Assembly: GCA_050950765.1 (NCBI GenBank)
Contig: JBMNIF010000002.1
Span: 11,738 to 75,737, forward strand
Direction of reading: 5' to 3'
Origin: Bdellovibrionota bacterium
GTDB taxonomy: Bacteria; Bdellovibrionota_C; UBA2361; JAAYZI01
Length of the DNA stretch: 64,000 nucleotides
Shown: in pieces, positions 2,513 through 63,865 of the stretch
Layout: each line of letters begins with the position of its first letter
How positions within the stretch are numbered: the stretch's first letter is position 1
Position numbers and translations under genes: made by a program
The notes under the pieces: model-generated
Told to the model about the DNA's origin: nothing
Seen by the model: the letters and a program-made list of their open reading frames with translations, nothing else
Databases searched by the model: none

Positions 2513-4864
2513 CTAATTAGCCGCGTTAAGTTTCCTTATCAGTGTCATGCAATCTTTGGTAAATACTTTTTTGGAAGTCCTCTTAATATTTACCTTCTTG
2601 GATTGTTTTACGCGCAACCTATTGCTTTTGATAGCAGTACTACCAACAGTTATATTTTTATACCTTCTGACAATTCTCGGAAGATCGATAACTTTTAATG
2701 TCGTGCCATTTTCAAGAGAACCAGAAAATTCCGGTCCACATCTCCGTCCGCCCAAAATTAAGTTTAATGGAACTTCTCCGCTACCAGTCCCGATAAGAGA
2801 AATGTTCATCAAGCCGCCTGGGATAGCTTTTCTACTAACAGTACCGTCCTTCCTAACACCTGAAATCTTAATTGAAGAAAGTGTCATCGGAGTTTGATTC
2901 TCTCTCTCTTTATTTTTATCGTCTTCCACAACGGTCTTTACTTGGCAGTTCGGAGTAAATTGCAATGTCATCCCATCATATAAAGATGCGTTGTTATAAG
3001 CGTAGGTATAAGCACTATCACTCGCAGATCCCCGTACTCCAATAGTAGCGGAGGTTGCAACTAAAGAGGCTACTTCCGGCGTAGCAAAGGCATAAGATGT
3101 TTCTATTAAACCCGAAGGATAGAGTGTAACATTCACTGTTACATCGTCTTTATAAATGCTGGCGTAAGAACGAGCGTGCCAAGTGATGCTCTGACTGTTG
3201 GCATCTCCTTTTACCCTAATGCCATGACCTCTTTGCGGAAAAATTAGGTCTGTATGTAAAACGGCGATCGAATTTAGAGGCGCATCTGACCCGTTCCTAT
3301 AATCAGCTGAGCTTTGATTTTGTAAATAAATTACACCGTTTGGAGAGATGGTAATATTCTTGTATGACACACCATAAAACGGGAATTCAAATCCAAGTGT
3401 AACCTCAGGAAATTCTAATTCATCAACGTTAGAGATAATGTCTTCCTCTAGCGAAACATAAGAAGGAGCCTGCCTGCCCTCTGTGGCGCTATATGAACAA
3501 ACGGTCTGATTACCAACTTCTGGCTCTACGTTGCCATTAATCAACCTTCCCAAATTTAAAACCTTACCACTTTCAACAAGACCATCAAGTTTGGTGTTGC
3601 TTGTGCCAGTTTTTTTCAGATGTGCTGTCAGTTCAGTCGGTGTTATCTTCGGATAAAGAGATTTTAACAGGGCAACTGAACCTGTCACAAATGGAGTCGC
3701 CATAGAAGTTCCAGAAAGACTTTTATATGTTCCATTAAGGTAAGTACTAACGATACTAACACCTGGTGCTGCAATAGTTACCGTTTTTGCGCCAAAATTA
3801 GAAAAATCTGCTAAACTTCCACTTCTACCGATAGCACCAACAGAGATAACATTGGCTAAGTTGTAGCCAGCGGGATAAGTTGGTTTTACGTCGTTGTTGT
3901 TACTTTCATTACCTGCTGCTGCAACAAATGTAATCCCTTCGGCTAGTGCTTTTTCTATGGCGTTATACATGACTTGAGAGAACCCCCCACCGCCCCAAGA
4001 ATTATTCATGGCAACGATATTAAATCCTCGCTTCTTCATGGAAACGACATAATTAATGGCCTCAACTGCCCCTGCCAAGCTACCGGATCCTTTTGCGTTA
4101 AGAAATCTACATCCTAGCAACTTTATATTCCAATTTATTCCACTAATACCGATACCGTTATTACCACTAGCACCGATAACTCCCGCTACATGTGTGCCGT
4201 GACCATTGGCATCCATCGGATCTCCTTTTGCGCCGATTGTTGACATGCCATAAACATCATCAATATAGCCGTTACCATCATCATCTATACCGTTACCTGG
4301 AATTTCTCCGTTATTAACCCAGATATTAGCGGCGAGATCCGGATGAGTATAATCGATTCCTGTATCAATTACGGCCACAATCATGTCTTGAGAGCCCGTC
4401 GTGACATTCCAAGCTGTCTCTGTATCGATACCTAAATTCTTACTAAGTCCCCACTGTTCATTAAACTTGCTATCGTTAGGACGTGCAGCTATTGAGATCT
4501 GATAATTTGGAGAACAAGATTTTACAATTCCATTAGCTACGAGTTCTTCACACAGTTGTAAATCTGCAGCATTAACCTCTCTTATGTTTGATTTGGAAGT
4601 ATTTGAGGCGTTATAGCTGTGAGCACCTTTTAAGGTTACTAAACTCGATCCTTCTCCGAGAGGCTTTAGCTCTTGTAAGCCAAAAGAACTAAGTGTCGCT
4701 GCCTCTCCTTGCTGTAAAGCGAAAGGACCTTTTTCGGGTGGTTCAATAACGAACTCTCCTTCATAAACGTAATCAGTAGCAGCATTAGCGTAAAAAGGAA
4801 TAAAGACGGCAAGTAATAACACCGTCCATCGAGGGAATTTACTCAACAAGCAAGACATCAGCAA
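2513..4864 (-). CDS. Secreted subtilisin-like serine peptidase (S8 family) with a long C-terminal extension.
   Basis: The catalytic triad motifs DTGIDYTHPDL, HGTHVAG and GTSMATP are present. There is an N-terminal signal peptide (LLLAVFIPFYANAA). Confidence 0.85.
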   Translation of the reverse strand: MLMSCLLSKFPRWTVLLLAVFIPFYANAATDYVYEGEFVIEPPEKGPFALQQGEAATLSSFGLQELKPLGEGSSLVTLKGAHSYNASNTSKSNIREVNAADLQLCEELVANGIVKSCSPNYQISIAARPNDSKFNEQWGLSKNLGIDTETAWNVTTGSQDMIVAVIDTGIDYTHPDLAANIWVNNGEIPGNGIDDDGNGYIDDVYGMSTIGAKGDPMDANGHGTHVAGVIGASGNNGIGISGINWNIKLLGCRFLNAKGSGSLAGAVEAINYVVSMKKRGFNIVAMNNSWGGGGFSQVMYNAIEKALAEGITFVAAAGNESNNNDVKPTYPAGYNLANVISVGAIGRSGSLADFSNFGAKTVTIAAPGVSIVSTYLNGTYKSLSGTSMATPFVTGSVALLKSLYPKITPTELTAHLKKTGTSNTKLDGLVESGKVLNLGRLINGNVEPEVGNQTVCSYSATEGRQAPSYVSLEEDIISNVDELEFPEVTLGFEFPFYGVSYKNITISPNGVIYLQNQSSADYRNGSDAPLNSIAVLHTDLIFPQRGHGIRVKGDANSQSITWHARSYASIYKDDVTVNVTLYPSGLIETSYAFATPEVASLVATSATIGVRGSASDSAYTYAYNNASLYDGMTLQFTPNCQVKTVVEDDKNKERENQTPMTLSSIKISGVRKDGTVSRKAIPGGLMNISLIGTGSGEVPLNLILGGRRCGPEFSGSLENGTTLKVIDLPRIVRRYKNITVGSTAIKSNRLRVKQSKKVNIKRTSKKVFTKDCMTLIRKLNAAN

Positions 4865-6739: not shown

Positions 6740-7950
6740 TTTACCCCCATAGAGGATCGTCACTGAAGGGTGGCACCAGATTTTTAACCCCCGTCAAGAT
6801 CTAGCTAGCTCGTTTCGCTGTATCAGCCCGTCCTAGCGTCCCTGAAGGGTGGCACCAGTGATAAAGCCAACTAATCCGCCCAAACTGGTGGGTGGCACCA
6901 AATTCATCACCTGCTTGCTAGAAGCTTTTTGCTTAAAAAGCCTATTAGAATCAAACTATTATGACATAACTAGTTGTTTAGGAGCCTCTAGCTTCAGCTT
7001 TCAATAAAGAAGGGTGGCACCAGTGATAACCCCGCCCTGCTGTCCCTGAAGGGTGGCACCAGATTTTTAACCCCCGTCAAGATCTAGCTAGCTCGTTTCG
7101 CTGTATCAGCCCGTCCTAGCGTCCCTGAAGGGTGGCACCAGTGATAAAGCCAACTAATCCGCCCAAACTGGTGGGTGGCACCAAATTCATCCCAAATTCA
7201 TCACCTGCTTACTGAGAAGCTTTTTGCTTAAAAAGTCTATTAAAATCAAACTATTATGACATAACTAGTTGTTTAGGAGCCTCTAGCTTCAGCCTTCAAT
7301 AAAGAAGGGTGGCACCAGATTTTTAACCCCCGTCAAGATCTAGCTAGCTCGTTTCGCTGTATCAGCCCGTCCTAGCGTCCCTGAAGGGTGGCACCAGTGA
7401 TAAAGCCAACTAATCCGCCCAAACTGGTGGGTGGCACCAAATTCATCACCTGCTTGCTGAGAGCTTTTTGCTTAAAAAGTCTATTAAAATCAAATTATTA
7501 TGACGTAACTAGCTGTTTAAAAACCTCCAACTTCACCAACTTCAGCCTTCAATAAAGAAGGGTGGCACCAGATTTTTACCAGCTTCAGCCTTCAATAAAA
7601 AAGGGTGGCACCAAATTTTCCAAATTTTCAGCCTCTTTTTAGTTGCAGCCCGTTCCCGTCAAGACCCAACCAATTCGCTTTTCAGTTCAGCCCGTTCAGC
7701 CGTCCCTGAAGGGTGGCACCAAATTCATCACCTCCGTCAAGACCCAACCAATTCGCTTTTTAGTTGCAACCCGTCCAGCCGTCCCTGAAGGGTGGCACCA
7801 GTTTTTTAACCCCCGTCCAGATCTAGCTAGCTCGTTTCGCTGTATCAGCCCGCCCAATCGTCCCTGAAGGGTGGCACCAGTTTTTTAACACTAAATTTTA
7901 ACCCCAACTTCAGCCTTCAATAAAAAAGGGTGGCACCAAATTTTCAGCCC
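6740..7950. repeat. Array A of a mosaic short-repeat family: about 16 copies of the core GAAGGGTGGCACCA(A/G)ATT within a roughly 250-290 bp higher-order unit repeated about four times.
   Basis: Seen directly in sequence. The array fills the entire convergent intergenic region between CDS 5834-6706 (+) and ispF (-). Confidence 0.95.
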
Positions 7951-18554: not shown

Positions 18555-19938
18555 TTTTTTCCTTTCATTACGCTTCCGTGTGACGTTTTGGTTTGTTGGG
18601 ACATTCACCCTACTCCTTTTTATTTTGCTTATTACCTTCTATTTTATAGTTCGTTCCGATCTGCATAAAGCAACAGATGCACCAATTGTTTTTGAGCTGG
18701 AAGAGTTGGCTAATGTCTATCGCAATCACGGCATAAAAGGGTGCGCAGCACAGATAGATGAGGAGTCAGAAGAGTACGGCGCTAATAGGATTTTTTATAG
18801 GATCTTAGATAGTAACTATAAAGAGCTGCTGCATTCAGATCTCTCTACTTGGGGGAAAATTCCCATCAACTGGGCAGTTTTAAACAATTTGCAAGATCGT
18901 AAATATATCAGTGAAACGGTTTTGCTTCCTCAAAAAAACAGAGAAATACGTATTGTTTCAATGAAACTTGATGACGGTAACTTAATAGCTCAAAGCGGAA
19001 TCTATCTTAATGCAGAGTTAGAACAGGTCGCTTATTACAGAAAAATGTTGCCAATAATCGGTATCTCCATAACTTTATTAGCTGCTGTCATCGGTTTCTT
19101 TGTAGTTCACAGACTAGTTAAAAGAATTGATGATGTCACAGCTTTAGCTGGTTCTATCTCTTCCTCAAACCTAACGCAGCGCTTACCGTTACAATATGGT
19201 GCCGATGAAATTAACGCACTCGCCACAGAGATCAATCAGATGTTGGATAGGATTGAAAATTTAGTCGCTGAAATAAAACAGATTAGTGACGGCTTGGCGC
19301 ATGATCTCAGAAGCTCGATCGCGCGTATACGGGCAGGTGCGGAGATAATACTCGGTAATGAACACCTTGATCTCACACTACAAGAGGGTGTCGCTGATAC
19401 AATTGAGGAGTGCGATCGTGTTTTAGCGATGGTTAATTCAATGTTGGATATCTCTCAGGTAGATGCAGGAACGATCAATTTTGAGATGGATCTACTAAAT
19501 CTCTCAACTTTAGTAGCAGATGCTGTTGAACTTTTTGAAGCGGTGGCAGCAGATAAACACCTAGAAATAACTCTTGCAAAGGAAGATAATTTAACTGTTA
19601 AAGGTGAAGTCGGTATGTTGCAACGCATAGTTTCTAATCTAATTGATAACGCCATTAAATTTACGCCTGAGGGTGGTTCTATTACAATTAAGCTTTTTGC
19701 AGATGGTGGCTTTGTTACGTTTATCTGTGAAGATTCCGGAATTGGAATTGCAGAGCAAGATCTACCTAATGTGTTTAACCGTTTTTATCGGTGTGATAGT
19801 AGTAGATCAAGCTCTGGTAACGGCTTAGGCTTAACGATCTGCAGATCTTTTATCAAAGCCCACGGAGGATCTATCAAAATCTCCAGTAAAAAAGATCACG
19901 GCACGACAGTTACTTTTACCCTTCCTAAAGAGAGGTGA
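18523..19938 (+). CDS. Sensor histidine kinase (TM-HAMP-HisKA-HATPase).
   Basis: H-box LAHDLRSSI, N/G boxes (NLIDNAIKF, DSGIGI, GLGLTI). Overlaps the regulator gene. Confidence 0.8.
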   Translation: MSDMSLKQLRNFFLSLRFRVTFWFVGTFTLLLFILLITFYFIVRSDLHKATDAPIVFELEELANVYRNHGIKGCAAQIDEESEEYGANRIFYRILDSNYKELLHSDLSTWGKIPINWAVLNNLQDRKYISETVLLPQKNREIRIVSMKLDDGNLIAQSGIYLNAELEQVAYYRKMLPIIGISITLLAAVIGFFVVHRLVKRIDDVTALAGSISSSNLTQRLPLQYGADEINALATEINQMLDRIENLVAEIKQISDGLAHDLRSSIARIRAGAEIILGNEHLDLTLQEGVADTIEECDRVLAMVNSMLDISQVDAGTINFEMDLLNLSTLVADAVELFEAVAADKHLEITLAKEDNLTVKGEVGMLQRIVSNLIDNAIKFTPEGGSITIKLFADGGFVTFICEDSGIGIAEQDLPNVFNRFYRCDSSRSSSGNGLGLTICRSFIKAHGGSIKISSKKDHGTTVTFTLPKER

Positions 19939-20873
19939 TAATGCAAGAAAGAGCAAAAAAAATACTTATCTTTTACAACCCGATCTCAGGACGGGGGCAA
20001 TCAAAAAGTGTTGCTGCTGATTTTGCAGAAAAGTTGAAAGGTAAAAATTATCCAATACTGTTAATGGAATCTAAGCGCAGTTCAGATGAATATTTGCAGA
20101 TCTTATCAGAGATAACAGATAGCTCTTTAATTATAGTGGTAGGTGGTGATGGTACACTACTAAATATGCTCCCCTTACTAGCAACATCAAAGGTACCTGT
20201 TTTTATGATTCCAAGTGGCAACGAATCACTTTTTGCTCAAATTTACGGGATGAATAAAAGCTTTGCACAATTATCCAACGCTTTAGAAAATGGAGAAGTT
20301 TTACAGCAGTATTACGGATTGATTTCAACAACAACCCCAAATAATAAAACAACCTCCACTGTTCCTTTCTATATTATGGCGAGTATGGGGCTTGATTCTT
20401 TAACGGTAAGAAATATCGGTAAAAGATCTACCCCTATCAACGACTTTACCTATATAAAATACGGACTAAAAGCACTTCTGACTCTACATCATCCCCTAGT
20501 CTCCATAACTGTTGACGGCTCTACCATCCTTGAAAAAGAGCAGGGATATTTTATCGTTGCCAATTCTGCTTCATATGCACACAACCTACAACTTGTGCCA
20601 CAAGCTTCACCGTCAGAAAGGCGCTTAGATCTCGGTTTTTTACCGAATGCTAATATTCTACATGAACTAAAAAAATCGTATTGGATGGCACGTTACCAAC
20701 CTGCCAAGCTCCCTATGCAATACTACTCAGGAGAAAAGATAGAGATAACACTACACTCCCCAGATTATCCTCTACAAGTAGACGGTGAATATTTTGGTCT
20801 AAAAGAGATCTCAGCAGGGAGTAAGGTGACTTTCTCCTTAGCAGAAACTCCCATCAACGTTCTCTGCCCTTAA
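19935..20873 (+). CDS. DAGK-catalytic-domain lipid kinase (YegS/BmrU-like).
   Basis: The motif VVGGDGTLLNMLP...PSGNE. The 4-bp overlap with the kinase gene implies an operon. Confidence 0.7.
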   Translation: MIMQERAKKILIFYNPISGRGQSKSVAADFAEKLKGKNYPILLMESKRSSDEYLQILSEITDSSLIIVVGGDGTLLNMLPLLATSKVPVFMIPSGNESLFAQIYGMNKSFAQLSNALENGEVLQQYYGLISTTTPNNKTTSTVPFYIMASMGLDSLTVRNIGKRSTPINDFTYIKYGLKALLTLHHPLVSITVDGSTILEKEQGYFIVANSASYAHNLQLVPQASPSERRLDLGFLPNANILHELKKSYWMARYQPAKLPMQYYSGEKIEITLHSPDYPLQVDGEYFGLKEISAGSKVTFSLAETPINVLCP

Positions 20874-20880
20874 AAAACCT

Positions 20881-21060
20881 TTTTCCTCACCAAGCTCTAA
20901 ACAATGCTCTTTACTCGTAAGGATCTTTTTCCTCACCGAGACTCTAATCAACATCCCTTGCTCGCAAGAATCTTTTTCCTCACCAAGCTCTAAACAACAT
21001 CCCTTACCCGCAAAAATTCTTTTCCTCACCAAGCTCTAAACAACACCACCCGAAAAATCT
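20881..21060. repeat. Tandem repeat of about 47 bp x 4 (consensus ...CTTTTTCCTCACCAAGCTCTAAACAACATCCCTT...).
   Basis: Seen directly. Lies in the convergent intergenic region between the lipid kinase gene and etfA. Confidence 0.85.
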
Positions 21061-21112: not shown

Positions 21113-22126
21113 TTAAAGGATCTTATTTAACTCCTCAATCACCTTAAAAGCATCTGCTACATATAAGACATCTGTTTTCCCATGTGCCCAGCTGCAACTT
21201 TCGTTTGTGTTAATTGCACGTCTTTCATTGATAAATCTCCACCCTACCACGTGTGGCTCTTCACCATGACAACAGGTAGCTAAGCCTTTTTGATGATGCG
21301 GAGTTGATCCGGTCTGACCGATCTGATTTAAGTGACTAAGGAACGGTAAAACTGCTGCTCCTTCTTCACTCTGATCAACTAGAGATTTACTACTACCGAG
21401 AGAGGCTTTTGTTTTGTCTAAAAAGTCAAGAATAAACTCGCTTGCTTTTTTAGTATCATTAGCAGGATCGTTCTGTTTCTTCGTCCAACCTGCACCTGCT
21501 ACAAAAAGTAACTTAGCTTCAGGACGAATCGTTCTGGCATCACCGCTCGGATCTTCAACTCCGATAACTTTTGTCTTTAAGTCGTTAATTGTCACGGTAA
21601 GCTTTTGCACGACTGCTTGCCCTGATTCTCCACTCCATTCTGTATCACAACCAGAATCTATCAATAAGCACCAAGGCTTGGAGCTCCTTGAAAGAGTTCC
21701 TTTGATACGTTGACGATAATACCAACGCTCTATCTCTAAAGAACCATCTTTTACATTTAATGCCGTTACCTGAGAGTCTACACTCCCCCCCACTCTAAAA
21801 GCTGCACCTGGCAGAGCGCGTTTAAAACGGATGCTAGCAGGAGCAAATACAAGGTCGGCAGCAGACTCTTTAATAAGTGCTGTTATAGCAGGAACATCAG
21901 TAGCATAACGAGAAGAATTAAAATCTTCTCCTTCAACTGCTAAAAACTTAGTGGATCCACAAGTGGCAAGGGTATCTGCCGCTTTTTGGAGATCTCCGCC
22001 GATTAGCCCGACTGTAAAGTCGGTAGCTAAAGCTTCTGCTATACGTTTAGTGCTAGTAAGTGTTTGTAAAGCGAGCTCTGATAATGAACCATCCTGTTCT
22101 GGATGGGCTAAAAATAAAATCGTCAT
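21113..22126 (-). CDS. etfA: Electron transfer flavoprotein alpha subunit.
   Basis: The N-terminal alpha/beta domain and the C-terminal FAD-binding region (...VLYVADAFKVIEELNKIL) match EtfA. Confidence 0.8.
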   Translation of the reverse strand: MTILFLAHPEQDGSLSELALQTLTSTKRIAEALATDFTVGLIGGDLQKAADTLATCGSTKFLAVEGEDFNSSRYATDVPAITALIKESAADLVFAPASIRFKRALPGAAFRVGGSVDSQVTALNVKDGSLEIERWYYRQRIKGTLSRSSKPWCLLIDSGCDTEWSGESGQAVVQKLTVTINDLKTKVIGVEDPSGDARTIRPEAKLLFVAGAGWTKKQNDPANDTKKASEFILDFLDKTKASLGSSKSLVDQSEEGAAVLPFLSHLNQIGQTGSTPHHQKGLATCCHGEEPHVVGWRFINERRAINTNESCSWAHGKTDVLYVADAFKVIEELNKIL

Positions 22127-25863: not shown

Positions 25864-26075
25864 AGGTTAAAAATTTGGTGCCACCCTTCAGGGACAGCAG
25901 GACGGGCTGATACTACAAAGCGAAGTCAGCTAGATCTTTACGAGGGTTAAAAATTTGGTGCCACCCACTAGGGACAGCAGGACGGGCTGCAATGCAGAGA
26001 GGAAAATTTGGTGCCACCCACCAGTGCTAAAAGACTCTAAAACTACGATAGATAATAATATCAAGATGTTAGCAA
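25864..26075. repeat. Array B of the mosaic repeat family (3 cores, GGTGCCACCC orientation). It is truncated by the IS insertion.
   Basis: Starts immediately after the mrcA stop codon and ends at the IS left target-site duplication. Confidence 0.9.
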
Positions 26076-27903: not shown

Positions 27904-28372
27904 TTAGCAAAAGCTTCGGGCTTGGCGAATTTGGTGCCACCCACCAGTAAGACGGGATCTGGCAGATTTGGCAGGGCTTGGATCTGGTGCCACCCACTAG
28001 AGACAGCAGAGCGGGCGCAACTTGCAGATCAAATCGGTTAGATCTCTACGGAATTTACTACCACTCGCTAGGGACAATTGAGCGGGCTGATACGGCAAAA
28101 TAAATCAGCTAGATCTATACGGAGGAGGTTAAATTTTGGTGCCACCCACCAGTGCTAAAAGACTCTAAAATTACGATAGCTAATAATATCAAGATGTTAG
28201 CAAAAGCTTCGGGCTTGGCGAATTTGGTGCCACCCACTAGGGACAGCAGGACGGGCTGCAATGCAGAGAGGGATCAGCTAGATCTCTACGAGGGTTAAAA
28301 ATTTGGTGCCACCCACTAGAGACAATTGAGCGGGCTGATACGGCAAAATAAATCAGCTAGATCTATACGGAG
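27904..28372. repeat. Array C of the mosaic repeat family (about 6 cores) with an internal duplication of about 250 bp.
   Basis: Runs from the IS right end to 7 bp before the map stop codon. Confidence 0.9.
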
Positions 28373-35357: not shown

Positions 35358-35846
35358 CTACGCTATCGCCTTAAAACAGACCTTTAGAACCTCAACTCCC
35401 AACTCTCCTTTCGGAGTGTTGTATGTAACCCAGTCTCCCTCTTTTGCCTTTGCATTAATCAAAGCAGAACCTAACGGAGAAAGCCATGATATTTTTCCAT
35501 TTAACACATCTACTTCATCAGATCCTACAATGGAATAAGTTTTTTTATTATCATCCTCGTCACACAAGGTAACGGTTGCACCGAACTGAACATAATCGGA
35601 GGTCACCGTTAACGGATCAATCACAAAAGCTTCATCTATGTGTTTTGAAAGGAACTCAATGCGTTTATCTATCTCTCTAAGTTTTTTCTTACCGTAGATA
35701 TAATCTCCGTTCTCTGAACGATCGCCGTTTGAAGCAGCCCACGCTACCTGTTGAGTAACTTGCGGTCTCTCATCATGCTTGAGGGTATACAGCTCCTGAT
35801 TTAATCTAGCTAGACCGGCTGGTGTTATGTAATTCTTTTGTGCCAT
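35358..35846 (-). CDS. greA: Transcription elongation factor GreA.
   Basis: MAQKNYITPAGLARLNQEL... plus the C-terminal FKBP-like domain. The ORF-track start at 35960 is probably an upstream extension. Confidence 0.85.
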   Translation of the reverse strand: MAQKNYITPAGLARLNQELYTLKHDERPQVTQQVAWAASNGDRSENGDYIYGKKKLREIDKRIEFLSKHIDEAFVIDPLTVTSDYVQFGATVTLCDEDDNKKTYSIVGSDEVDVLNGKISWLSPLGSALINAKAKEGDWVTYNTPKGELGVEVLKVCFKAIA

Positions 35847-35954
35847 AGTTATTCTTAACAGACTTAACAGAGACTCAAGTTTTTGATAATAATTCAAGCT
35901 GAGCAGTGTGTCGAGATAAGAACTCTTAAGAAAGTTCACAAAAGGGGAGAAATG

Positions 35955-37253
35955 AACCATAAAAAAAACGATTGCGCTATTTTACATTACGATAATCACG
36001 AAATTGAATTACCGATCGTCGAAGGTAGTATGGGCGAACGTGCCATTGATATCTCGCGATTACGTGCTGAAACCGGTTTAATTACACTGGATAACGGTTA
36101 TGCCAATACGGGGTCTTGCAAATCAGCTATAACTTTCGTTGATGGTGAGAAAGGGATCTTACGTTATCGTGGCATCCCGATTGAAGAGTTAGCAGAGAGA
36201 TCAACCTTTATTGAGGTCTGTTATTTACTGATCTACGGCAAACTTCCCACAACTCTCGAGCTCTATGAATTTCGTAAAAAAATCGGGCGTTACGCCTTGA
36301 TTCATGAAGATATGAAGAACTTCTTCAATCAGTTTCATGGAGAAGCTCATCCTATGGCGATTTTAAGCTCTATGGTCTGTTCTCTTTCGGCGTATCATCC
36401 GGAGTTATTAAAATCAAATCAATCCCCCGCAGATAGAGATGAAACAATTACGCATCTACTTTCAAAGGTGCGCGTTTTGAGTGCCTTTGCTTATAAACGT
36501 TCTATCGGACAAACTTTCATCTACCCACATATGAAGTACGATTATATAGAGAACTTTCTTTATATGATGTTTGCCACACCGATAGAAGATTACAAGATAG
36601 ACCCTGTTGTAAAACGTGCCTTAGATCTACTTTTTATTATTCATGCAGACCATGAACAAAACTGCTCAACCTCAACAGTGCGCATGGTAGGATCTGCTAG
36701 AACCAATCTTTTTGCCTCTGTTTCCGCTGGAATTTGCGCCTTATGGGGAGAGCTGCACGGTGGTGCCAATCAAGCTGTAATTGAGATGTTAGAAAACATC
36801 TACAATAGTGGAGAGGGCTACAAAAAATTTATTGAAAAAGCAAAAGATAAAAATGATCCTTTTAAATTGATGGGTTTCGGACATCGCGTCTATAAGACTT
36901 ATGATCCGCGTGCAAAAATTATAAAGAAAACTGCTGATGATGTTTTAAAGAAACTTAATATTTCAGATCCAATTCTTGATCTAGCACAAGAGCTGGAAGA
37001 AGTAGCGTTGCGCGACGATTTCTTTATAGAGAGACATCTCTACCCCAACGTTGATTTCTACTCCGGTATTATTTACCGCGCTATCGGAATACCAACTAAT
37101 GACTTTACTGTAATGTTTGCGTTAGGACGTTTACCTGGTTGGATTGCGCAATGGAAAGAGATGGTAGAGCAAGGTGAAACAAAACTTTATCGCCCACGTC
37201 AGATTTATATCGGAGAAACTGAGCAACACTACATCCCAATCGATGCCCGTTAA
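35955..37253 (+). CDS. gltA: Citrate synthase.
   Basis: ...GFGHRVYKTYDPRA... and the catalytic His/Asp contexts. About 433 aa from MNHKK. Confidence 0.9.
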   Translation, partial: NHKKNDCAILHYDNHEIELPIVEGSMGERAIDISRLRAETGLITLDNGYANTGSCKSAITFVDGEKGILRYRGIPIEELAERSTFIEVCYLLIYGKLPTTLELYEFRKKIGRYALIHEDMKNFFNQFHGEAHPMAILSSMVCSLSAYHPELLKSNQSPADRDETITHLLSKVRVLSAFAYKRSIGQTFIYPHMKYDYIENFLYMMFATPIEDYKIDPVVKRALDLLFIIHADHEQNCSTSTVRMVGSARTNLFASVSAGICALWGELHGGANQAVIEMLENIYNSGEGYKKFIEKAKDKNDPFKLMGFGHRVYKTYDPRAKIIKKTADDVLKKLNISDPILDLAQELEEVALRDDFFIERHLYPNVDFYSGIIYRAIGIPTNDFTVMFALGRLPGWIAQWKEMVEQGETKLYRPRQIYIGETEQHYIPIDAR

Positions 37254-37475
37254 TAAAAAAATAAAATGCTTTTAAAAAGGGTTATTTTTACTTAAATTAA
37301 GTAAAGTAAGATTATTTTATGTAAAAATTCTACAATATTATCAATACCTTCCCCGTAATAGCACCAAATTATAATTTTTAGCATAACTTATTAATGTAGG
37401 GGAATTTTGAGCCTATGTAACGGTTCTAGAAAATGTTCCTGTTCTTTCACAAATCATTAGAAATGTAGGTGAAAA

Positions 37476-38167
37476 ATGTTGATCCTGTCTGTGGCGTTTT
37501 GCCTCGTCGCTTTTGCCGGTGCCGCTTACGGCGTTTTCCTGTTTTGGGGATTCGACATTACCCAACTCTGGTTCTCGGAGTTCTTCTCGGAGTTCTCTTG
37601 GGAAACTTTCAAAGCCAATGTTCAAGGACTGCACCCTTCCGCTTTGGAGACGGTCTACCAATACCGTTCCGAAATGGTTGCACTCGTTGTTATCATGGCT
37701 TTGTTTCTGAAGGCTGTCGGCGCTTTTAGCGCGACTAATACGGACTGCTCTTTTAGGGTTATCGTCCTTAGGGTGTTATCTGCGCTGGCGGAGGGAGGTA
37801 TTTTCGGGATCATTTTAATGCTCTTCGAAAGCCGTTTCCCTGGGGCTATCGCCCGATTGGGGCACCGCCCCTTATCGCCTGCCTTGTTATTGGAGTAGTT
37901 TTACTACTATCCAAGTTCAAAATTAGCTATGCATTGCTAATAATATACCTACTTACAATCGGCTGGGCGATATTTACTAGAAGCTCTGGTCAAACTATTA
38001 CACTGTCGATATGGCCCACGGTATACCTGAGTGCACTTGTACCACTTTGTGCGCTCGGAACTCTTCAAGCGCTCTACAGAGACAAGTCAGACGGCGAACT
38101 CTATGTTATGAGTTGGGTACGTCTGTACGGACTGGCTTCATTAGCGGCTATCGTGCTTCTTGTATGA
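37476..38167 (+). pseudogene. Frameshifted copy (P1) of a novel multi-TM membrane-protein family. It is split into ORFs 37476-37898 and 37934-38167.
   Basis: Shares TQLWF..F.SWETFKA..QGL and EGG.FGIILMLFESRFPGAIA motifs with P2. The alternative frame after GGGG/CCCC at about 37859-37871 continues the P2-like sequence. Confidence 0.55.
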
Positions 38168-38214
38168 AAATATAAGAAGCGTCGTTAAAGTCATCTGAGA
38201 GGTCGCACCAAGAA

Positions 38215-38257
38215 GGGGGAAAAAGGTTTTTACTACAAAGGGCTCAATTTTCCCCCC
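38215..38257 (+). terminator. Putative intrinsic terminator after P1.
   Basis: GGGGGAAAA ... TTTTCCCCC inverted repeat, conserved with the terminator after P2. Confidence 0.35.
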
Positions 38258-38349
38258 TCCTTTTCTTCAGATTAACTAAGCACCCCACCCCAAACTAAAA
38301 CCCCTCTCAAAGCCTAATTGATCTACTTTTCAGCATCAGCCAGCCTACT

Positions 38350-38810
38350 TTTTTAACCTCCGTAGAAATCTAGCCGATCCCGTTCTGCTGTTGCAGCCAG
38401 CCCTGCTGTCCCTGAAGGGTGGCACCAAATTTTTGACCTTCGTGAAAACCTAACCGATTCGTTTTGTAGTGACAGCCCGTTCAATCGTCCCTGAAGGGTG
38501 GCACCAAATTCGCCAAATGCTAAGCTTTTGCTAACGTCTTGATATTATTGGCTATCCTAATTTCAGAGTCTTGTAGCACTGGTGGGTGGCACCAAATTTC
38601 CGCTGCTGTCCCTGAAGGGTGGCACCAAATTTTCTGGTGGGTGGCACCAAATTTTCCCTCGTGAAAACCTAACCAACTTGCTTTTTAATATCAGCCCGCT
38701 CAATCGTCCCTAGCGAGTGGTAGTAAATTCCGTAGAAATCTAGCCGATCCCGTTCTGCAGTTGCAGCCACCCCAATCATCCCTAAAGGGTGATGGTAAAT
38801 TTCTTTAACT
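38350..38810. repeat. Array D of the mosaic repeat family (about 5 intact and 2 degenerate cores, GGTGGCACCA orientation).
   Basis: Lies between the duplicated membrane-protein genes P1 and P2. Confidence 0.9.
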
Positions 38811-38927
38811 TTACGATTTTTGGTATAACTTACAATGATATGAGAGGAAATTGAGCCCTTATAAAAGGTTTTTATAAGAGGTTCCTCCCCGTTCTTTAAC
38901 AATTGAAAGGATATAAGGAATATAAGG

Positions 38928-39752
38928 ATGAAAAAGATCTACCTCTCTTCCGAACAAAGGTTCGACTTCGTTAATAACGCCTTTGCATTTTTGGCGTTGT
39001 TTTTCTTTGTCGCCGATGCTGTTCCTTTGATCTGTAGATTCGACACTACACAACTCTGGTTCACGCAGTTCTCTTGGGAAACTTTCAAAGCCGATGCTCA
39101 AGGACTGCAGATCTCCGATTTGGGAATCGCCAAGGGATACAATCCTACAATGGTTGCAAGCGTTATCGTTATGTCTCTGCTTATCGGAGTCATCGCCGTT
39201 TTCAGAGTTAAAACGAACAACCCCCGAGAGGTTTTAAACTTTGAGATGCTCTCCACACTTGTGGAGGGAGGTGCCTTCGGGATCATTTTAATGCTCTTCG
39301 AAAGCCGTTTCCCTGGAGCCATTGCCCAATTTGGGGCACTGTACTTTATCATCGGCGCTGCTCTGCTGCTCTTTATTGTAGCAGCTTTACTAAAGCTCAG
39401 GTTCAAAATTAACTTCGTATTCTTACTACTCATAAGCATAGCCGCGACTTTCTGGGTGATATTGATCAGCTGCGGTGTCCAAACTATTAGGCTGTCAGTG
39501 TTCCCTACACTGTATCTGACTATGCTCATGATGCTTAAGTCGCTTGAAATTATTCAAATGCTTGATAATTGGCAAGTAGTAGAAAACGTACAGGGTTTCG
39601 AGGAGCTAGAGCTCGAGGATAAAATATACGACGAAGAAACAAGACAGGAAGTTCAAAAAACTGAAGAAGAAGCTCACCGCGAACTCAACTATGCAAGCTT
39701 CCTGCGCGTTTACGGTCTAATCTTACTATCGGTTATGACGGTTCTTATATGA
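38928..39752 (+). CDS. Novel multi-TM membrane protein (P2, 274 aa) with an acidic insert. It is a paralog of 37476-38167.
   Basis: Intact ORF. Conserved motifs shared with P1. Four or five predicted TM helices. Confidence 0.6.
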   Translation: MKKIYLSSEQRFDFVNNAFAFLALFFFVADAVPLICRFDTTQLWFTQFSWETFKADAQGLQISDLGIAKGYNPTMVASVIVMSLLIGVIAVFRVKTNNPREVLNFEMLSTLVEGGAFGIILMLFESRFPGAIAQFGALYFIIGAALLLFIVAALLKLRFKINFVFLLLISIAATFWVILISCGVQTIRLSVFPTLYLTMLMMLKSLEIIQMLDNWQVVENVQGFEELELEDKIYDEETRQEVQKTEEEAHRELNYASFLRVYGLILLSVMTVLI

Positions 39753-39801
39753 AAATATCAGAACCTGTACCAAGTACTTGCAAGGCTACGCTAAAAAAAG
39801 A

Positions 39802-39848
39802 GGGGAAGGTTTCTTTCACAAAAAGGGCTCAATTTTCCCCTCTTTTTT
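39802..39848 (+). terminator. Putative intrinsic terminator after P2.
   Basis: GAGGGGAAGG...AAAGGGCTCAATTTTCCCCTC followed by a T-run. Confidence 0.35.
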
Positions 39849-39879
39849 CAGATATCTACTTCAGAAAAATAAAAGAAAA

Positions 39880-40389
39880 CTACTTCCTTATATATTTAAG
39901 AAACGTCAAATTTTCAGGAGCGCTCTGTTTTTGCACCACCTTAAATGAATCTTCAAAGTGTGGGAAGAAAGCATCCCCCTTATGAGATGCAGGCACAAGA
40001 GTTATAAAAGCCTCCTCCCAAAAAGGGAGAGTTAATTGATAGATCTGCGCACCGCCTATAATCCAGAGGTAATCTCCTTGAATAGAGGTGCGTCCTTCTT
40101 TTACATCATTTAGATATCCGATTAGATCGTTACAAACTTTTACGCCGCTTGGAAAATCTTCAGCAGTAATACTTCTTCCTGCTACAATATTTAACCGATT
40201 CGGTAGTGGTCTAAACTTCGGGGGTAAAGAATGATAAGTTTTGTGCCCCATTAAGACGGTGTGTCCTGTTGTTAATTCTGCAAAATGCTTCATATCTTGC
40301 GGATAACGCCACGGGATAGTGTTGTCTACCCCGATGACTCGTATCTCATCCATAGCGGCAATTGCAGCAATTGTTATCTTTTTCATCAA
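39880..40389 (-). CDS. folA: Dihydrofolate reductase.
   Basis: ...IAAMDE...IG..IPW... and the LMGHKTYHSLP motifs. 169 aa. Confidence 0.85.
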   Translation of the reverse strand: MMKKITIAAIAAMDEIRVIGVDNTIPWRYPQDMKHFAELTTGHTVLMGHKTYHSLPPKFRPLPNRLNIVAGRSITAEDFPSGVKVCNDLIGYLNDVKEGRTSIQGDYLWIIGGAQIYQLTLPFWEEAFITLVPASHKGDAFFPHFEDSFKVVQKQSAPENLTFLKYIRK

Positions 40390-45448: not shown

Positions 45449-46000
45449 TTTTATAGATCCCCACTATGTGCATCTTATAAGAAGAAAAAGTGCGGCTTCT
45501 ATGGGAGATATTACCTCTTAACATACGTAAGGGGAAAAGTTTGGGATAGAATCCAAACTTTTTTGCTTATGAGACAGGTCTTCTCTGATGTTATCCAGAT
45601 CGTCACGACGCAACTCTTCTTATAGAACCCTAACTTTTCTACCGTTTTGATATACGTATTTAGGTATGTAAAGAAAAGAGTTGCGTCTTATTAACGGGAG
45701 ATATTACCTCTTTTTTATAGATCCCCACTATATGCATATTATAAGAAGAAAAGGTGCGGCTTCTGCCGTAGACGCAACTCTTCTTATAGAACCCTAACTT
45801 TTCTACCGTTTTGATATACGTATTTAAGTATGTAAAGAAAAGAGTTGCGTCTTATTAACGGGAGATATTACCTCTTTTTTATAGATCTCCACTATGTGCA
45901 TATTATAAGAAGAAACGGTGCGGCTTCTATGGGAGATATTACCTCTTAACATACGTAAGGGGAAAAGTTTGGGATAGAATCCAAACTTTTCTGTAATTTA
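45449..46000. repeat. Nested repeat field downstream of tRNA-Val: modules X (x3), Y (x2, about 105 bp with 12-bp terminal inverted repeats GACGCAACTCTT) and Z (x2, ending in a perfect hairpin AAAAGTTTGG-n8-CCAAACTTTT).
   Basis: Seen directly in sequence. The roughly 1.1-kb stretch contains no credible ORF. Confidence 0.8.
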
Positions 46001-63069: not shown

Positions 63070-63865
63070 GTTAAAAATCTGGTGCCACCCTTCTTTTTTG
63101 CCGCTTTGGCGGCTTAAGCGATTTGACGCGATAGTTCGGCGAATTTGGTGCCACCCACCAGTTAAAGTGGGTGTCCTAATTGGGGCAGGGGTCGAAAATT
63201 TGGTGCCACCCACCAGTGCTAAAAAACTCTAAAATTGTAATAGCTAATAATATCAGTATGTTAGCAAAAGTCCTGCATTCGGCGAATTTGGTGCCACCCT
63301 TCTTTGTTGCAGGCTGTCGCTGGTGCCACCCACTAGGGACGATTGAACGGGTGGACGAATTTGGTGCCACCCACCAGTTAAAAGTGGGTGTCCTAATTGG
63401 CAGCTAGTAATATCAGTATGCTAGTAAAAGTCCTACATTCGGCGAATTTGGTGCCACCCTTCTTTTTTGCCGCTTTGACGGCTTTGGTCAAAAATTTGGT
63501 GCCACCCTTCAGTTTGAGCGGATCTTAACGGCTTGTCACTGGTGCCACCCACCAGTGTTACAAGACTCTAAAATCAGGATAGCCAATAATATCAAGATGT
63601 TAGCAAAAGCTTAGCATTCGGCGAATTTGGTGCCACCCTTCAGGGACAGCAGGACGGGCTGCAACTGCAAAACAGATCGGTTAGGTTTCTACGGAGGTTA
63701 AAAATTTGGTGCCACCCTTTAGGGACAATTACCCTCCACCCACTAGGGGCGCTTGAGCGGGCTGATACAGAAAAGCGAATTAGCCAGATTTTCTACGGAG
63801 GTTAAAAATTTGAGCGGGCTACAACTGCAAAACGGATTCGGCTAGGTTTCTACGGAGGTCAAAAC
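63070..63865. repeat. Array E of the mosaic repeat family (about 11 cores, GGTGCCACCC orientation) with embedded small hairpins.
   Basis: Seen directly in sequence. Lies between the end of ATPase-LRR copy 2 (+) and a minus-strand ORF that ends at 63869. Confidence 0.9.

Follow-up and report, generated by a model that had tools for sequence, protein, structure and literature searches.

In a 64,000-nucleotide stretch of a Bdellovibrionota bacterium contig (JBMNIF010000002.1, hereafter the window), two adjacent genes on the same strand, P1 and P2, encode related membrane proteins. They lie between the citrate synthase gene gltA (35883-37253, + strand) and a convergent dihydrofolate reductase (DHFR) gene, folA (39880-40389, - strand), and an array of short repeats occupies the spacer between them (Table 1). 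P1 is interrupted by a frameshift and P2 is intact.

The frame-corrected P1 protein (230 aa) matched P2 in a tblastn search of the window with an E value of 1e-36 and 45.5% identity over 189 aa, and could be aligned to it over its full length with 44% protein identity; the mean column identity of the corresponding DNA alignment was 76%. All of the conserved blocks on which a first-pass annotation of the window had based its description of the two genes as paralogs were recovered, namely TQLWF..FSWETFKA(N/D).QGL, EGG(I/A)FGIILMLFESRFPGAIA and a C-terminal helix with ..R(L/V)YGL. A third homolog, P0004 (314 aa), was found on a 4.7-kb Logan contig (L087), where its gene lies downstream of mnmA and not of gltA; its DNA is closer to that of P2. 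An unbroken series of 13 codons in the FGIILMLFESRFP block is the same in P1 and P2, as are 3 codons of the adjoining EGG, and conserved residues use the same codon in 73% of cases between P1 and P2 and in 52% between P1 and P0004, figures that no more than hint at past gene conversion between the two copies.

The homology of the pair continues into the non-coding sequence on both sides. P1, P2 and P0004 can be aligned over the ~100 nt that precede the start codon, and P1 and P0004 over another ~70 nt farther upstream with 84% identity (L087 3299-3367 against window 37324-37390, blastn), where P2 has the repeat array instead. The 3' flanks of P1 and P2 are 72% identical over 54 nt and include an identical 19-nt core, AAAGGGCTCAATTTTCCCC; they are clearly related, as had been noticed, without being near-identical as had been stated. 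A tandem segmental duplication leaves just such a pattern, of neighbouring, co-oriented copies that remain homologous into the non-coding sequence at both the 5' and the 3' end. Since each copy is a self-contained unit of leader, coding sequence (CDS) and terminator, the duplicated unit appears to have been a whole transcription unit, made up of a leader of ~100-150 nt, the CDS and a hairpin terminator. The proposal that gene and terminator were copied together was thus borne out, with the addition of the leader, which had gone unnoticed.

Table 1 Features of the P1-P2 locus and arrays of the same repeat family in the window (TM, transmembrane; ORF, open reading frame; TRF, Tandem Repeats Finder).
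Feature	Position	Strand	Basis or remark
P1 upstream region and leader	37318-37475	+	Conserved with P0004 upstream region in L087; proximal part conserved with P2 leader (alignment)
P1 5' inverted motif GGGGAATTTTGAGCCTATGTA	37399-37419	+	Forms the left arm of a weak hairpin in the leader, closed at ~37441
P1, apparent frameshifted pseudogene of the orphan 7-TM family	37476-38167	+	ORF comparison, tblastn, intact ortholog P0002
12-nt tandem duplication TTCTCGGAGTTC, two copies	37572-37596	+	TRF, protein alignments
P1 frameshift site, G4	37859-37862	+	Ortholog has G5
P1 3' hairpin GAAGGGGGAAAA...TTTTCCCCCCTC, then CTTTTCTTC	38212-38261	+	3' inverted motif inside, 38234-38255
Intergenic repeat array between P1 and P2	38354-38806	+	79-nt units and 22-33-nt units, all ending GGGTGGCACCAAATT
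P2 leader	38807-38927	+	82-89% identity to P0004 leader
P2 leader hairpin GAGAGGAA...TTCCTC	38842-38887	+	Holds 5' inverted motif GAGAGGAAATTGAGCCCTT, 38842-38860
P2, intact 274-aa family member	38928-39752	+	NCBI MGI6524137.1, ACOX2O_02435
P2 acidic segment, residues ~211-253	39558-39686	+	Between helix 6 and C-terminal helix
P2 terminator hairpin, A run before and T run after	39791-39851	+	3' inverted motif AAGGGCTCAATTTTCCCCTC, 39823-39842
Stretch absent from sister strain L001 (approximate)	38759-39812	.	Array end, P2 leader, P2 CDS, left arm of terminator
Repeat-family array	6768-7941	+	Scan with core GGGTGGCACCAAAT
Repeat-family array	25873-26019	-	Scan with core GGGTGGCACCAAAT
Repeat-family array	27929-28314	-	Scan with core GGGTGGCACCAAAT
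Repeat-family array, cores of the P1-P2 spacer	38417-38652	+	Scan with core GGGTGGCACCAAAT
Repeat-family array	63077-63717	-	Scan with core GGGTGGCACCAAAT

The repeat array and a sister strain without P2

A 2516-nt metagenome scaffold from the European Nucleotide Archive (L001) is 95-97% identical to the window in the P1-P2 region and carries, in order, an intact P1, the hairpin belonging to P1, a repeat array, ...tctttcacaaaaagggctcaattttcccctc and DHFR; P2 is absent. Its P1 ortholog, P0002, is open throughout (245 aa as called, with the likely true start giving 231 aa) and is recorded on two contigs. The array of L001 has the first units and a unique spacer in common with the window, then a junction at which ...gatcccgtc is joined to tctttcacaaaaagggctcaattttcccctcttttttt, and then DHFR. 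All that is left of P2 is the right half of its terminator. The deletion, of ~1 kb, extends from within the repeat array to the loop of the P2 terminator. Since L001 still holds this piece of the 3' flank of P2, the common ancestor of the two strains would have had both copies, and the L001 lineage would have deleted P2.

The array itself mixes two kinds of 79-nt unit with units of 22-33 nt, the last two units being decayed, and units end in a small hairpin, CCCTGAAGGG, plus the T-rich GGCACCAAATTT. Its core, GGGTGGCACCAAAT, was found 34 times in the window (up to 2 mismatches) against 0.18 expected, in five intergenic arrays. All 34 cores lie between ORFs of at least 120 aa, as in an interspersed intergenic repeat family, and the family is taken to be genome-wide. 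Short units (22-79 nt), intergenic arrays at many sites, hairpin ends and strain variation make the family comparable to the repetitive extragenic palindromic (REP) sequences and bacterial interspersed mosaic elements (BIMEs); unlike the enterobacterial REP, its sequence is unrelated as far as the motif shows and has no match in Rfam. The TGGCAC of the repeat resembles the -24 box of sigma-54 promoters, with no consistent -12 GC after it.

The position of this array, exactly between the copies, had led to the suggestion that the repeats either mediated the duplication or later invaded its junction. The position stands; the array is not special to the junction, being one of five. No direct evidence of mediation was found, and later invasion or turnover fits better: strains with 95-97% identity already have arrays that differ in whole units, while 44% protein identity marks the duplication as old, so that the arrays are mobile or recombinogenic on a far shorter timescale. 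We infer that the array came to occupy the P1-P2 spacer later and acts as a rearrangement hot spot, and that it was not the cause of the duplication. The opposite possibility, that unequal crossing-over between repeat units once flanking a single gene produced the two copies, is unlikely, even though it accounts for the location of the array and draws on its proneness to recombination, as seen in the whole-unit strain differences and in the end of the P2 deletion that falls within it. Repeat units also occur just downstream of P0004 in L087, and the P1 upstream region holds a 10-mer of the repeat core, GCACCAAATT. However, P2 has no repeat unit downstream, that 10-mer is the only similarity to the repeat upstream of P1 (2-5 of 300 shuffled sequences scored as well, and the corresponding P0004 match was not significant), and an array so young next to a duplication so old means that the present array cannot be the original junction. 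The distal part of the P1 leader was considered as a decayed repeat unit and rejected as evidence, the 10-mer being its only match.

In L087, at 4545-4681 on the 3' side of P0004, a remnant of the 3' end of DHFR can be recognised over ~45 nt, and units of the same repeat family abut it. Since the DHFR frame is broken there and the rest is replaced by repeat units, this relative has apparently lost DHFR from the site or had it displaced.

Frameshift in P1

Frame 0 of P1 is open from 37476 to 37898 (an ORF of 140 aa) and the remainder of the gene lies in frame +2, open to the normal stop at 38167. The 140-aa ORF is recorded at NCBI as a 'hypothetical protein' (MGI6524136.1, ACOX2O_02430), with P2 as the next locus tag. 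The window reads CGATTGGGGCACC, with four G (G4), where the L001 ortholog reads CGATTGGGGGCACC, with five (G5). P2 and P0004 are in frame at this position, and the G4 allele of the window is therefore the derived one. P1 appears to have been broken through the loss of one G from the G5 run, with no other damage in the gene. A single frameshift had been noted near 37859-37871 in the first-pass annotation; it was confirmed and assigned to the G run at the start of that interval.

The truncated P1 product is also encoded on contigs of four Joint Genome Institute (JGI) metagenomes (3300060803, -823, -804 and -679), three of them matching the window without a single difference over 2801 nt and the fourth (L086, 1.5 kb) over 735 nt; one JGI contig matches the window over 20,119 nt. 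The NCBI metagenome-assembled genome (MAG) has the G4 allele as well, in the form of the 140-aa ORF. An assembly error, in which case both copies would simply be intact paralogs, had been named beforehand as an alternative; the allele was 100% identical in four independent metagenome assemblies, and because of this recurrence a one-off error at G4 is unlikely. With an indel relative to both the intact ortholog and the paralogs, reproduced in four assemblies and the NCBI MAG, P1 has the features of a pseudogene by frameshift.

Both copies could likewise be intact if the missing G were a recurrent sequencing or assembly error, arising in a short homopolymer beside the GC-rich palindrome GGGGCACCGCCCC. 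Window and L001 do differ here by one base in a G run, the agreeing assemblies share a sample series, and P1 is otherwise undamaged. Against this, the four JGI metagenomes were assembled separately and all have exactly G4, as does the NCBI MAG, and a run of four or five G is short for a systematic short-read error, which leaves this explanation a slim chance.

Given that P1 is broken in the strain of the window and P2 deleted in L001, each lineage has disabled the opposite copy. This pattern suggests that P1 and P2 are functionally redundant, that one copy is sufficient, and that reciprocal loss is under way. Between the window and L001, identity was 96.6% in P1, 94-96% in nearby non-coding sequence and 99.8% in DHFR. 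The P1 genes differ by 12 non-synonymous and 8 synonymous changes, with a ratio of non-synonymous to synonymous rates (dN/dS) of 0.49; when split at the frameshift, dN/dS was 0.26 upstream (13 changes) and 2.1 downstream (7 changes), a difference that was not significant. Set against the DHFR comparison, with 0 non-synonymous changes and 1 synonymous, the P1 value indicates that P1-type genes are apparently fast-evolving in both strains. The DHFR alignment (window 39880-40386, L001 1531-2037) is the most conserved part of the comparison. Divergence between the two strains is thus uneven, for which strong constraint or recent recombination could be responsible.

Leaders, terminators and a 20-nt inverted repeat

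P2 and P0004 were 82-89% identical in the leader (38815-38889) and 84-89% identical in the 3' flank (39823-39908), the final ~30 nt of which overlap the end of DHFR, as compared with mostly ~50-65% in the CDS and 78-84% in its motif blocks. The flank sequences thus appear to be under constraint. The P2 terminator hairpin, with 17-nt arms that are 94% complementary, a folding energy of -24.9 kcal/mol (z -3.3) and a following TTTTTT, has the properties of an intrinsic (Rho-independent) terminator; that of P1 has them in part (z -0.9, interrupted tail CTCCTTTTCTTC). A consensus terminator scan missed both hairpins, whose loops are longer than 8 nt. The P2 terminator probably works in both directions and serves the convergent DHFR gene as well. 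In the P2 leader, a possible extended -10 element, TGGTATAAC (38821-38829), was picked out by eye (a consensus promoter scan found none), and the likely Shine-Dalgarno (SD) sequence is AAGGAA at 38914-38919. Rfam searches of the region, at the gathering thresholds and at E≤1, returned chance-level matches only.

Leader and terminator have a 20-nt inverted repeat in common at all three loci, P1, P2 and P0004 (L087), of the form GAG(A/G)GGAAA(A)TTGAGCC / GGCTCAATTTTCCCCTC. An exact 15-mer of the motif occurs in the window at these sites only, the match in the P2 leader being on the minus strand at 38846-38860. When each leader was compared with the reverse complement of its own 3' flank, 0-7 of 300 shuffled sequences scored as well, at all loci, and no such excess was seen in the forward orientation; for P1 the local alignment score was 22 against a null of 15.2±2.3. 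The predicted leader-trailer duplexes had energies of -43 to -49 kcal/mol (z -2.2 to -4.9). The inverted repeat, which is kept at the three loci despite ~40% protein identity, may provide protective hairpins at the ends of the mRNA, and so transcript stability, or may allow pairing between the 5' and 3' ends.

A precedent for the latter is icaR of Staphylococcus aureus, in which the 3' untranslated region pairs with the SD region of its own mRNA (PMC3868564). As in icaR, a stretch of the 3' flank, ~20 nt long, is complementary to the gene's own 5' leader at all three loci studied here. Unlike in icaR, the 5' motif lies ~70 nt upstream of the start codon and off the SD sequence, both motifs also sit in local hairpins, and pairing over the ribosome-binding site, as defines the icaR type, was not found. 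Going further, the inverted repeat could be a dedicated post-transcriptional module whose hairpins pair or 'kiss' within the mRNA or with the sister transcript and so set the dose of the membrane protein, a proposal that we consider quite unlikely to hold. If it were true, dose control of a protein harmful in excess would also explain why each lineage has one working copy.

A very improbable reading of the same motifs is that the gene is the cargo of a mobile cassette with 20-nt terminal inverted repeats and that the second copy arose by transposition and not by tandem duplication. The motif does flank each of the three loci, and these stand in different neighbourhoods (gltA-P1-P2-folA here, mnmA-P0004 in L087). 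Yet the similarity of P1 and P0004 continues at 84% for ~70 nt on the upstream side of the 5' motif, that of P2 and P0004 continues at 84-89% beyond the 3' motif, and neither a transposase nor a target-site duplication was seen. Nor does the motif occur anywhere else in the 64-kb window, and a motif scan of metagenome contigs gave >120 single matches, none of them near a family member or a repeat core, as chance would produce. An element bounded by terminal inverted repeats, of the kind of miniature inverted-repeat transposable elements, would have homology that stops at the motifs and other copies; here homology continues past the motifs on both sides, unlike what is expected where a mobile element ends. 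Tandem duplication of the whole unit remains the preferred account of the second copy.

Protein features and family breadth

Hydropathy and the secondary structure of two AlphaFold2 models point to seven long hydrophobic helices, with a short amphipathic helix in the first loop. The topology inferred from hydropathy and the positive-inside rule, applied by eye, is N-in/C-out in the inner membrane, based on the basic N-terminus (MKK..R), loop 2 (RVKTNNPR) and loop 4 (KLRFK); the conserved amphipathic segment SWE(T/V)FKAD would be periplasmic and the acidic loop cytoplasmic. The invariant residues are concentrated in helix 3 and the following turn (E-G-x-x-F-G-I-x-L-M-x-F-E-S-R-x-P), which would place a conserved Glu inside the membrane. 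The acidic insert that had been noticed in P2 is present, but it is not extra to P2: P0004 has a longer acidic segment at the same place and P1 has none. Because P0004 has this even longer version, the acidic loop is probably ancestral and would have been lost by P1. P1 and its ortholog read FSEF-FSEF as a result of the 12-nt tandem duplication, which neither P2 nor P0004 has. A comparison of the N-terminal and C-terminal halves of the protein detected no internal duplication. Our best guess at function, a weak one made without homology support, is a role in transport or sensing of a small solute or ion.

A protein search with P2 returned two clusters only, a P2 fragment and P0002, which is ~95% identical to reconstructed P1. 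When 1.84 billion representatives were scanned in full with HMMER, a profile of P2 and P0002 matched three proteins, namely the P2 fragment, truncated P1 and P0004. The family total was four distinct sequences (P1, P2, P0002 and P0004) in 5.8e9 clusters and 1.84e9 representatives (~15 billion proteins). No further members were found with P0004 alone, in a word-indexed search with the three-sequence profile or in the JGI metagenome contig collection, and 185,579 GTDB species genomes yielded no family relatives. Pfam-A, NCBIfam, PADLOC and the PDB sequences (including a PDB profile search) gave no significant match, in agreement with the first-pass view that no known domain could be recognised, and no hit to a characterised family emerged. 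The family appears to be a genuine orphan, known from one narrow lineage.

The top Pfam match of P2, and the only one near a threshold, was PF11992 (TgpA_N), which scored 14.1 bits (E 0.024) where the gathering cut-off is 30 and weakly aligned P2 residues 77-206 with profile positions 22-146. P2 resembles the membrane domain of TgpA, a transglutaminase, in having a multi-helix hydrophobic region. We treated the match as compositional and did not assign P2 to TgpA_N: it is below the cut-off and limited to P2, with no match for P1/P0002 or P0004, and no transglutaminase domain is present.

Neighbouring features

Beyond DHFR come a thymidylate synthase gene and a Nudix gene. On the other side of the pair, the longest ORF of citrate synthase begins (TTG start, 35883) inside the 5' part of the divergent greA ORF (35358-35960), and both starts are uncertain because the JGI calls differ among assemblies (433 or 456 aa for citrate synthase, 162 or 193 aa for greA). 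The closest citrate synthase among the GTDB species genomes was only 67% identical, with top matches from mixed phyla, and the lineage is without a close representative in that collection. The JGI gene caller also reports a 77-aa ORF on the minus strand (38669-38902), overlapping the array and the P2 leader, which is probably spurious; NCBI makes no such call, as the consecutive locus tags of P1 and P2 indicate.

Three other tandem repeats were noted in the window. A 402-nt repeat (1515-2327, 2.0 copies, 98% identity, TRF) takes in the 3' end of the 820-1818 ORF; a 164-nt repeat (45607-45928, 2.0 copies, 97% identity) is apparently intergenic and is also found in JGI contig L083; and a 46-nt repeat (20879-21045, 3.6 copies, 84% identity) lies between the ORFs at 19935-20873 and 21113-22126.

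Discussion

The whole of these observations is probably best read as an old, diverged tandem pair of an orphan membrane-protein gene, of which P1 lost one G in the strain of the window and P2 was deleted in the sister strain. Such a history would begin with tandem duplication of a whole single-gene transcription unit in a lineage-restricted family, and the repeat array would have entered the P1-P2 spacer later. In the window lineage, a recent loss of one G from G5 would then have inactivated P1; in the sister lineage, a repeat-associated deletion of ~1 kb would have removed P2.

Several points weigh against this account or parts of it. The four G4 assemblies all belong to a single sample series (Ga0591958-61), with probably the same population and sequencing platform behind them, and a systematic homopolymer error across that series therefore keeps some residual probability. 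The argument for redundancy draws on two lineages only. The 2.5-kb scaffold of L001 ends in and spans repeats, so that its P2-less structure could be a misassembly, a worry tempered by the position of the deletion junction, outside any shared repeat. Derived P1 changes are found in both the broken and the intact copy, with no clear drift confined to the broken one. As for the flanks and the protein, the consensus fold of the leader hairpin is weak (a 5-bp outer stem) and shows no covariation, and the AlphaFold2 models, built from a three-sequence alignment, are unreliable, with mean predicted local distance difference test scores of 48.7 (P2 first) and 43.0 (P1 ortholog first), and lend support to no particular function.

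The pair is comparable to tandem pairs of ORFan membrane-protein genes with differential loss: P1 and P2 are adjacent and co-oriented, with homology into the flanks, and one copy was lost to a homopolymer indel while the reciprocal copy was deleted in a sister strain. Nothing differs in kind from such pairs; what is unusual is the narrowness of the family and flanks that are better conserved than the CDS. A likeness also exists to the poly-G contingency genes of Neisseria, Haemophilus and Campylobacter, in that P1 is a membrane-protein gene whose frame is set by the length of a G run and whose strains are one G apart. Those genes typically carry 7 or more G, whereas the P1 tract has 4-5, and its length was the same in 4/4 assemblies of the window population, although assemblies cannot show minor variants. 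That the run is a switch, working by slipped-strand phase variation or by a programmed -1 frameshift that would give full-length P1, is scarcely credible, despite the exact one-base difference between close strains and a frame still fully open 3' of the site: besides the short and uniform tract, the ortholog is simply in frame, so that a requirement for frameshifting is not conserved, and CCCGATTGGGGCACC (37850-37865), read from the sequence, contains no slippery heptamer of the form X XXY YYZ.

With P1 regarded as a decayed copy, the NCBI entry ACOX2O_02430 would be the front portion of a pseudogene. The event is an ordinary one of gene duplication and decay, in a family that is new to the databases; the family is real, as its conserved motifs in three lineages indicate, yet extremely narrow, and carries little wider biology unless a function is found. 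The complementary leader and terminator pair is the only feature here that goes beyond the routine. For this genome, the intergenic repeat arrays are sites of deletion, and the finding that two very close strains keep opposite copies offers a small worked example of paralog decay, which argues that the copies are interchangeable.

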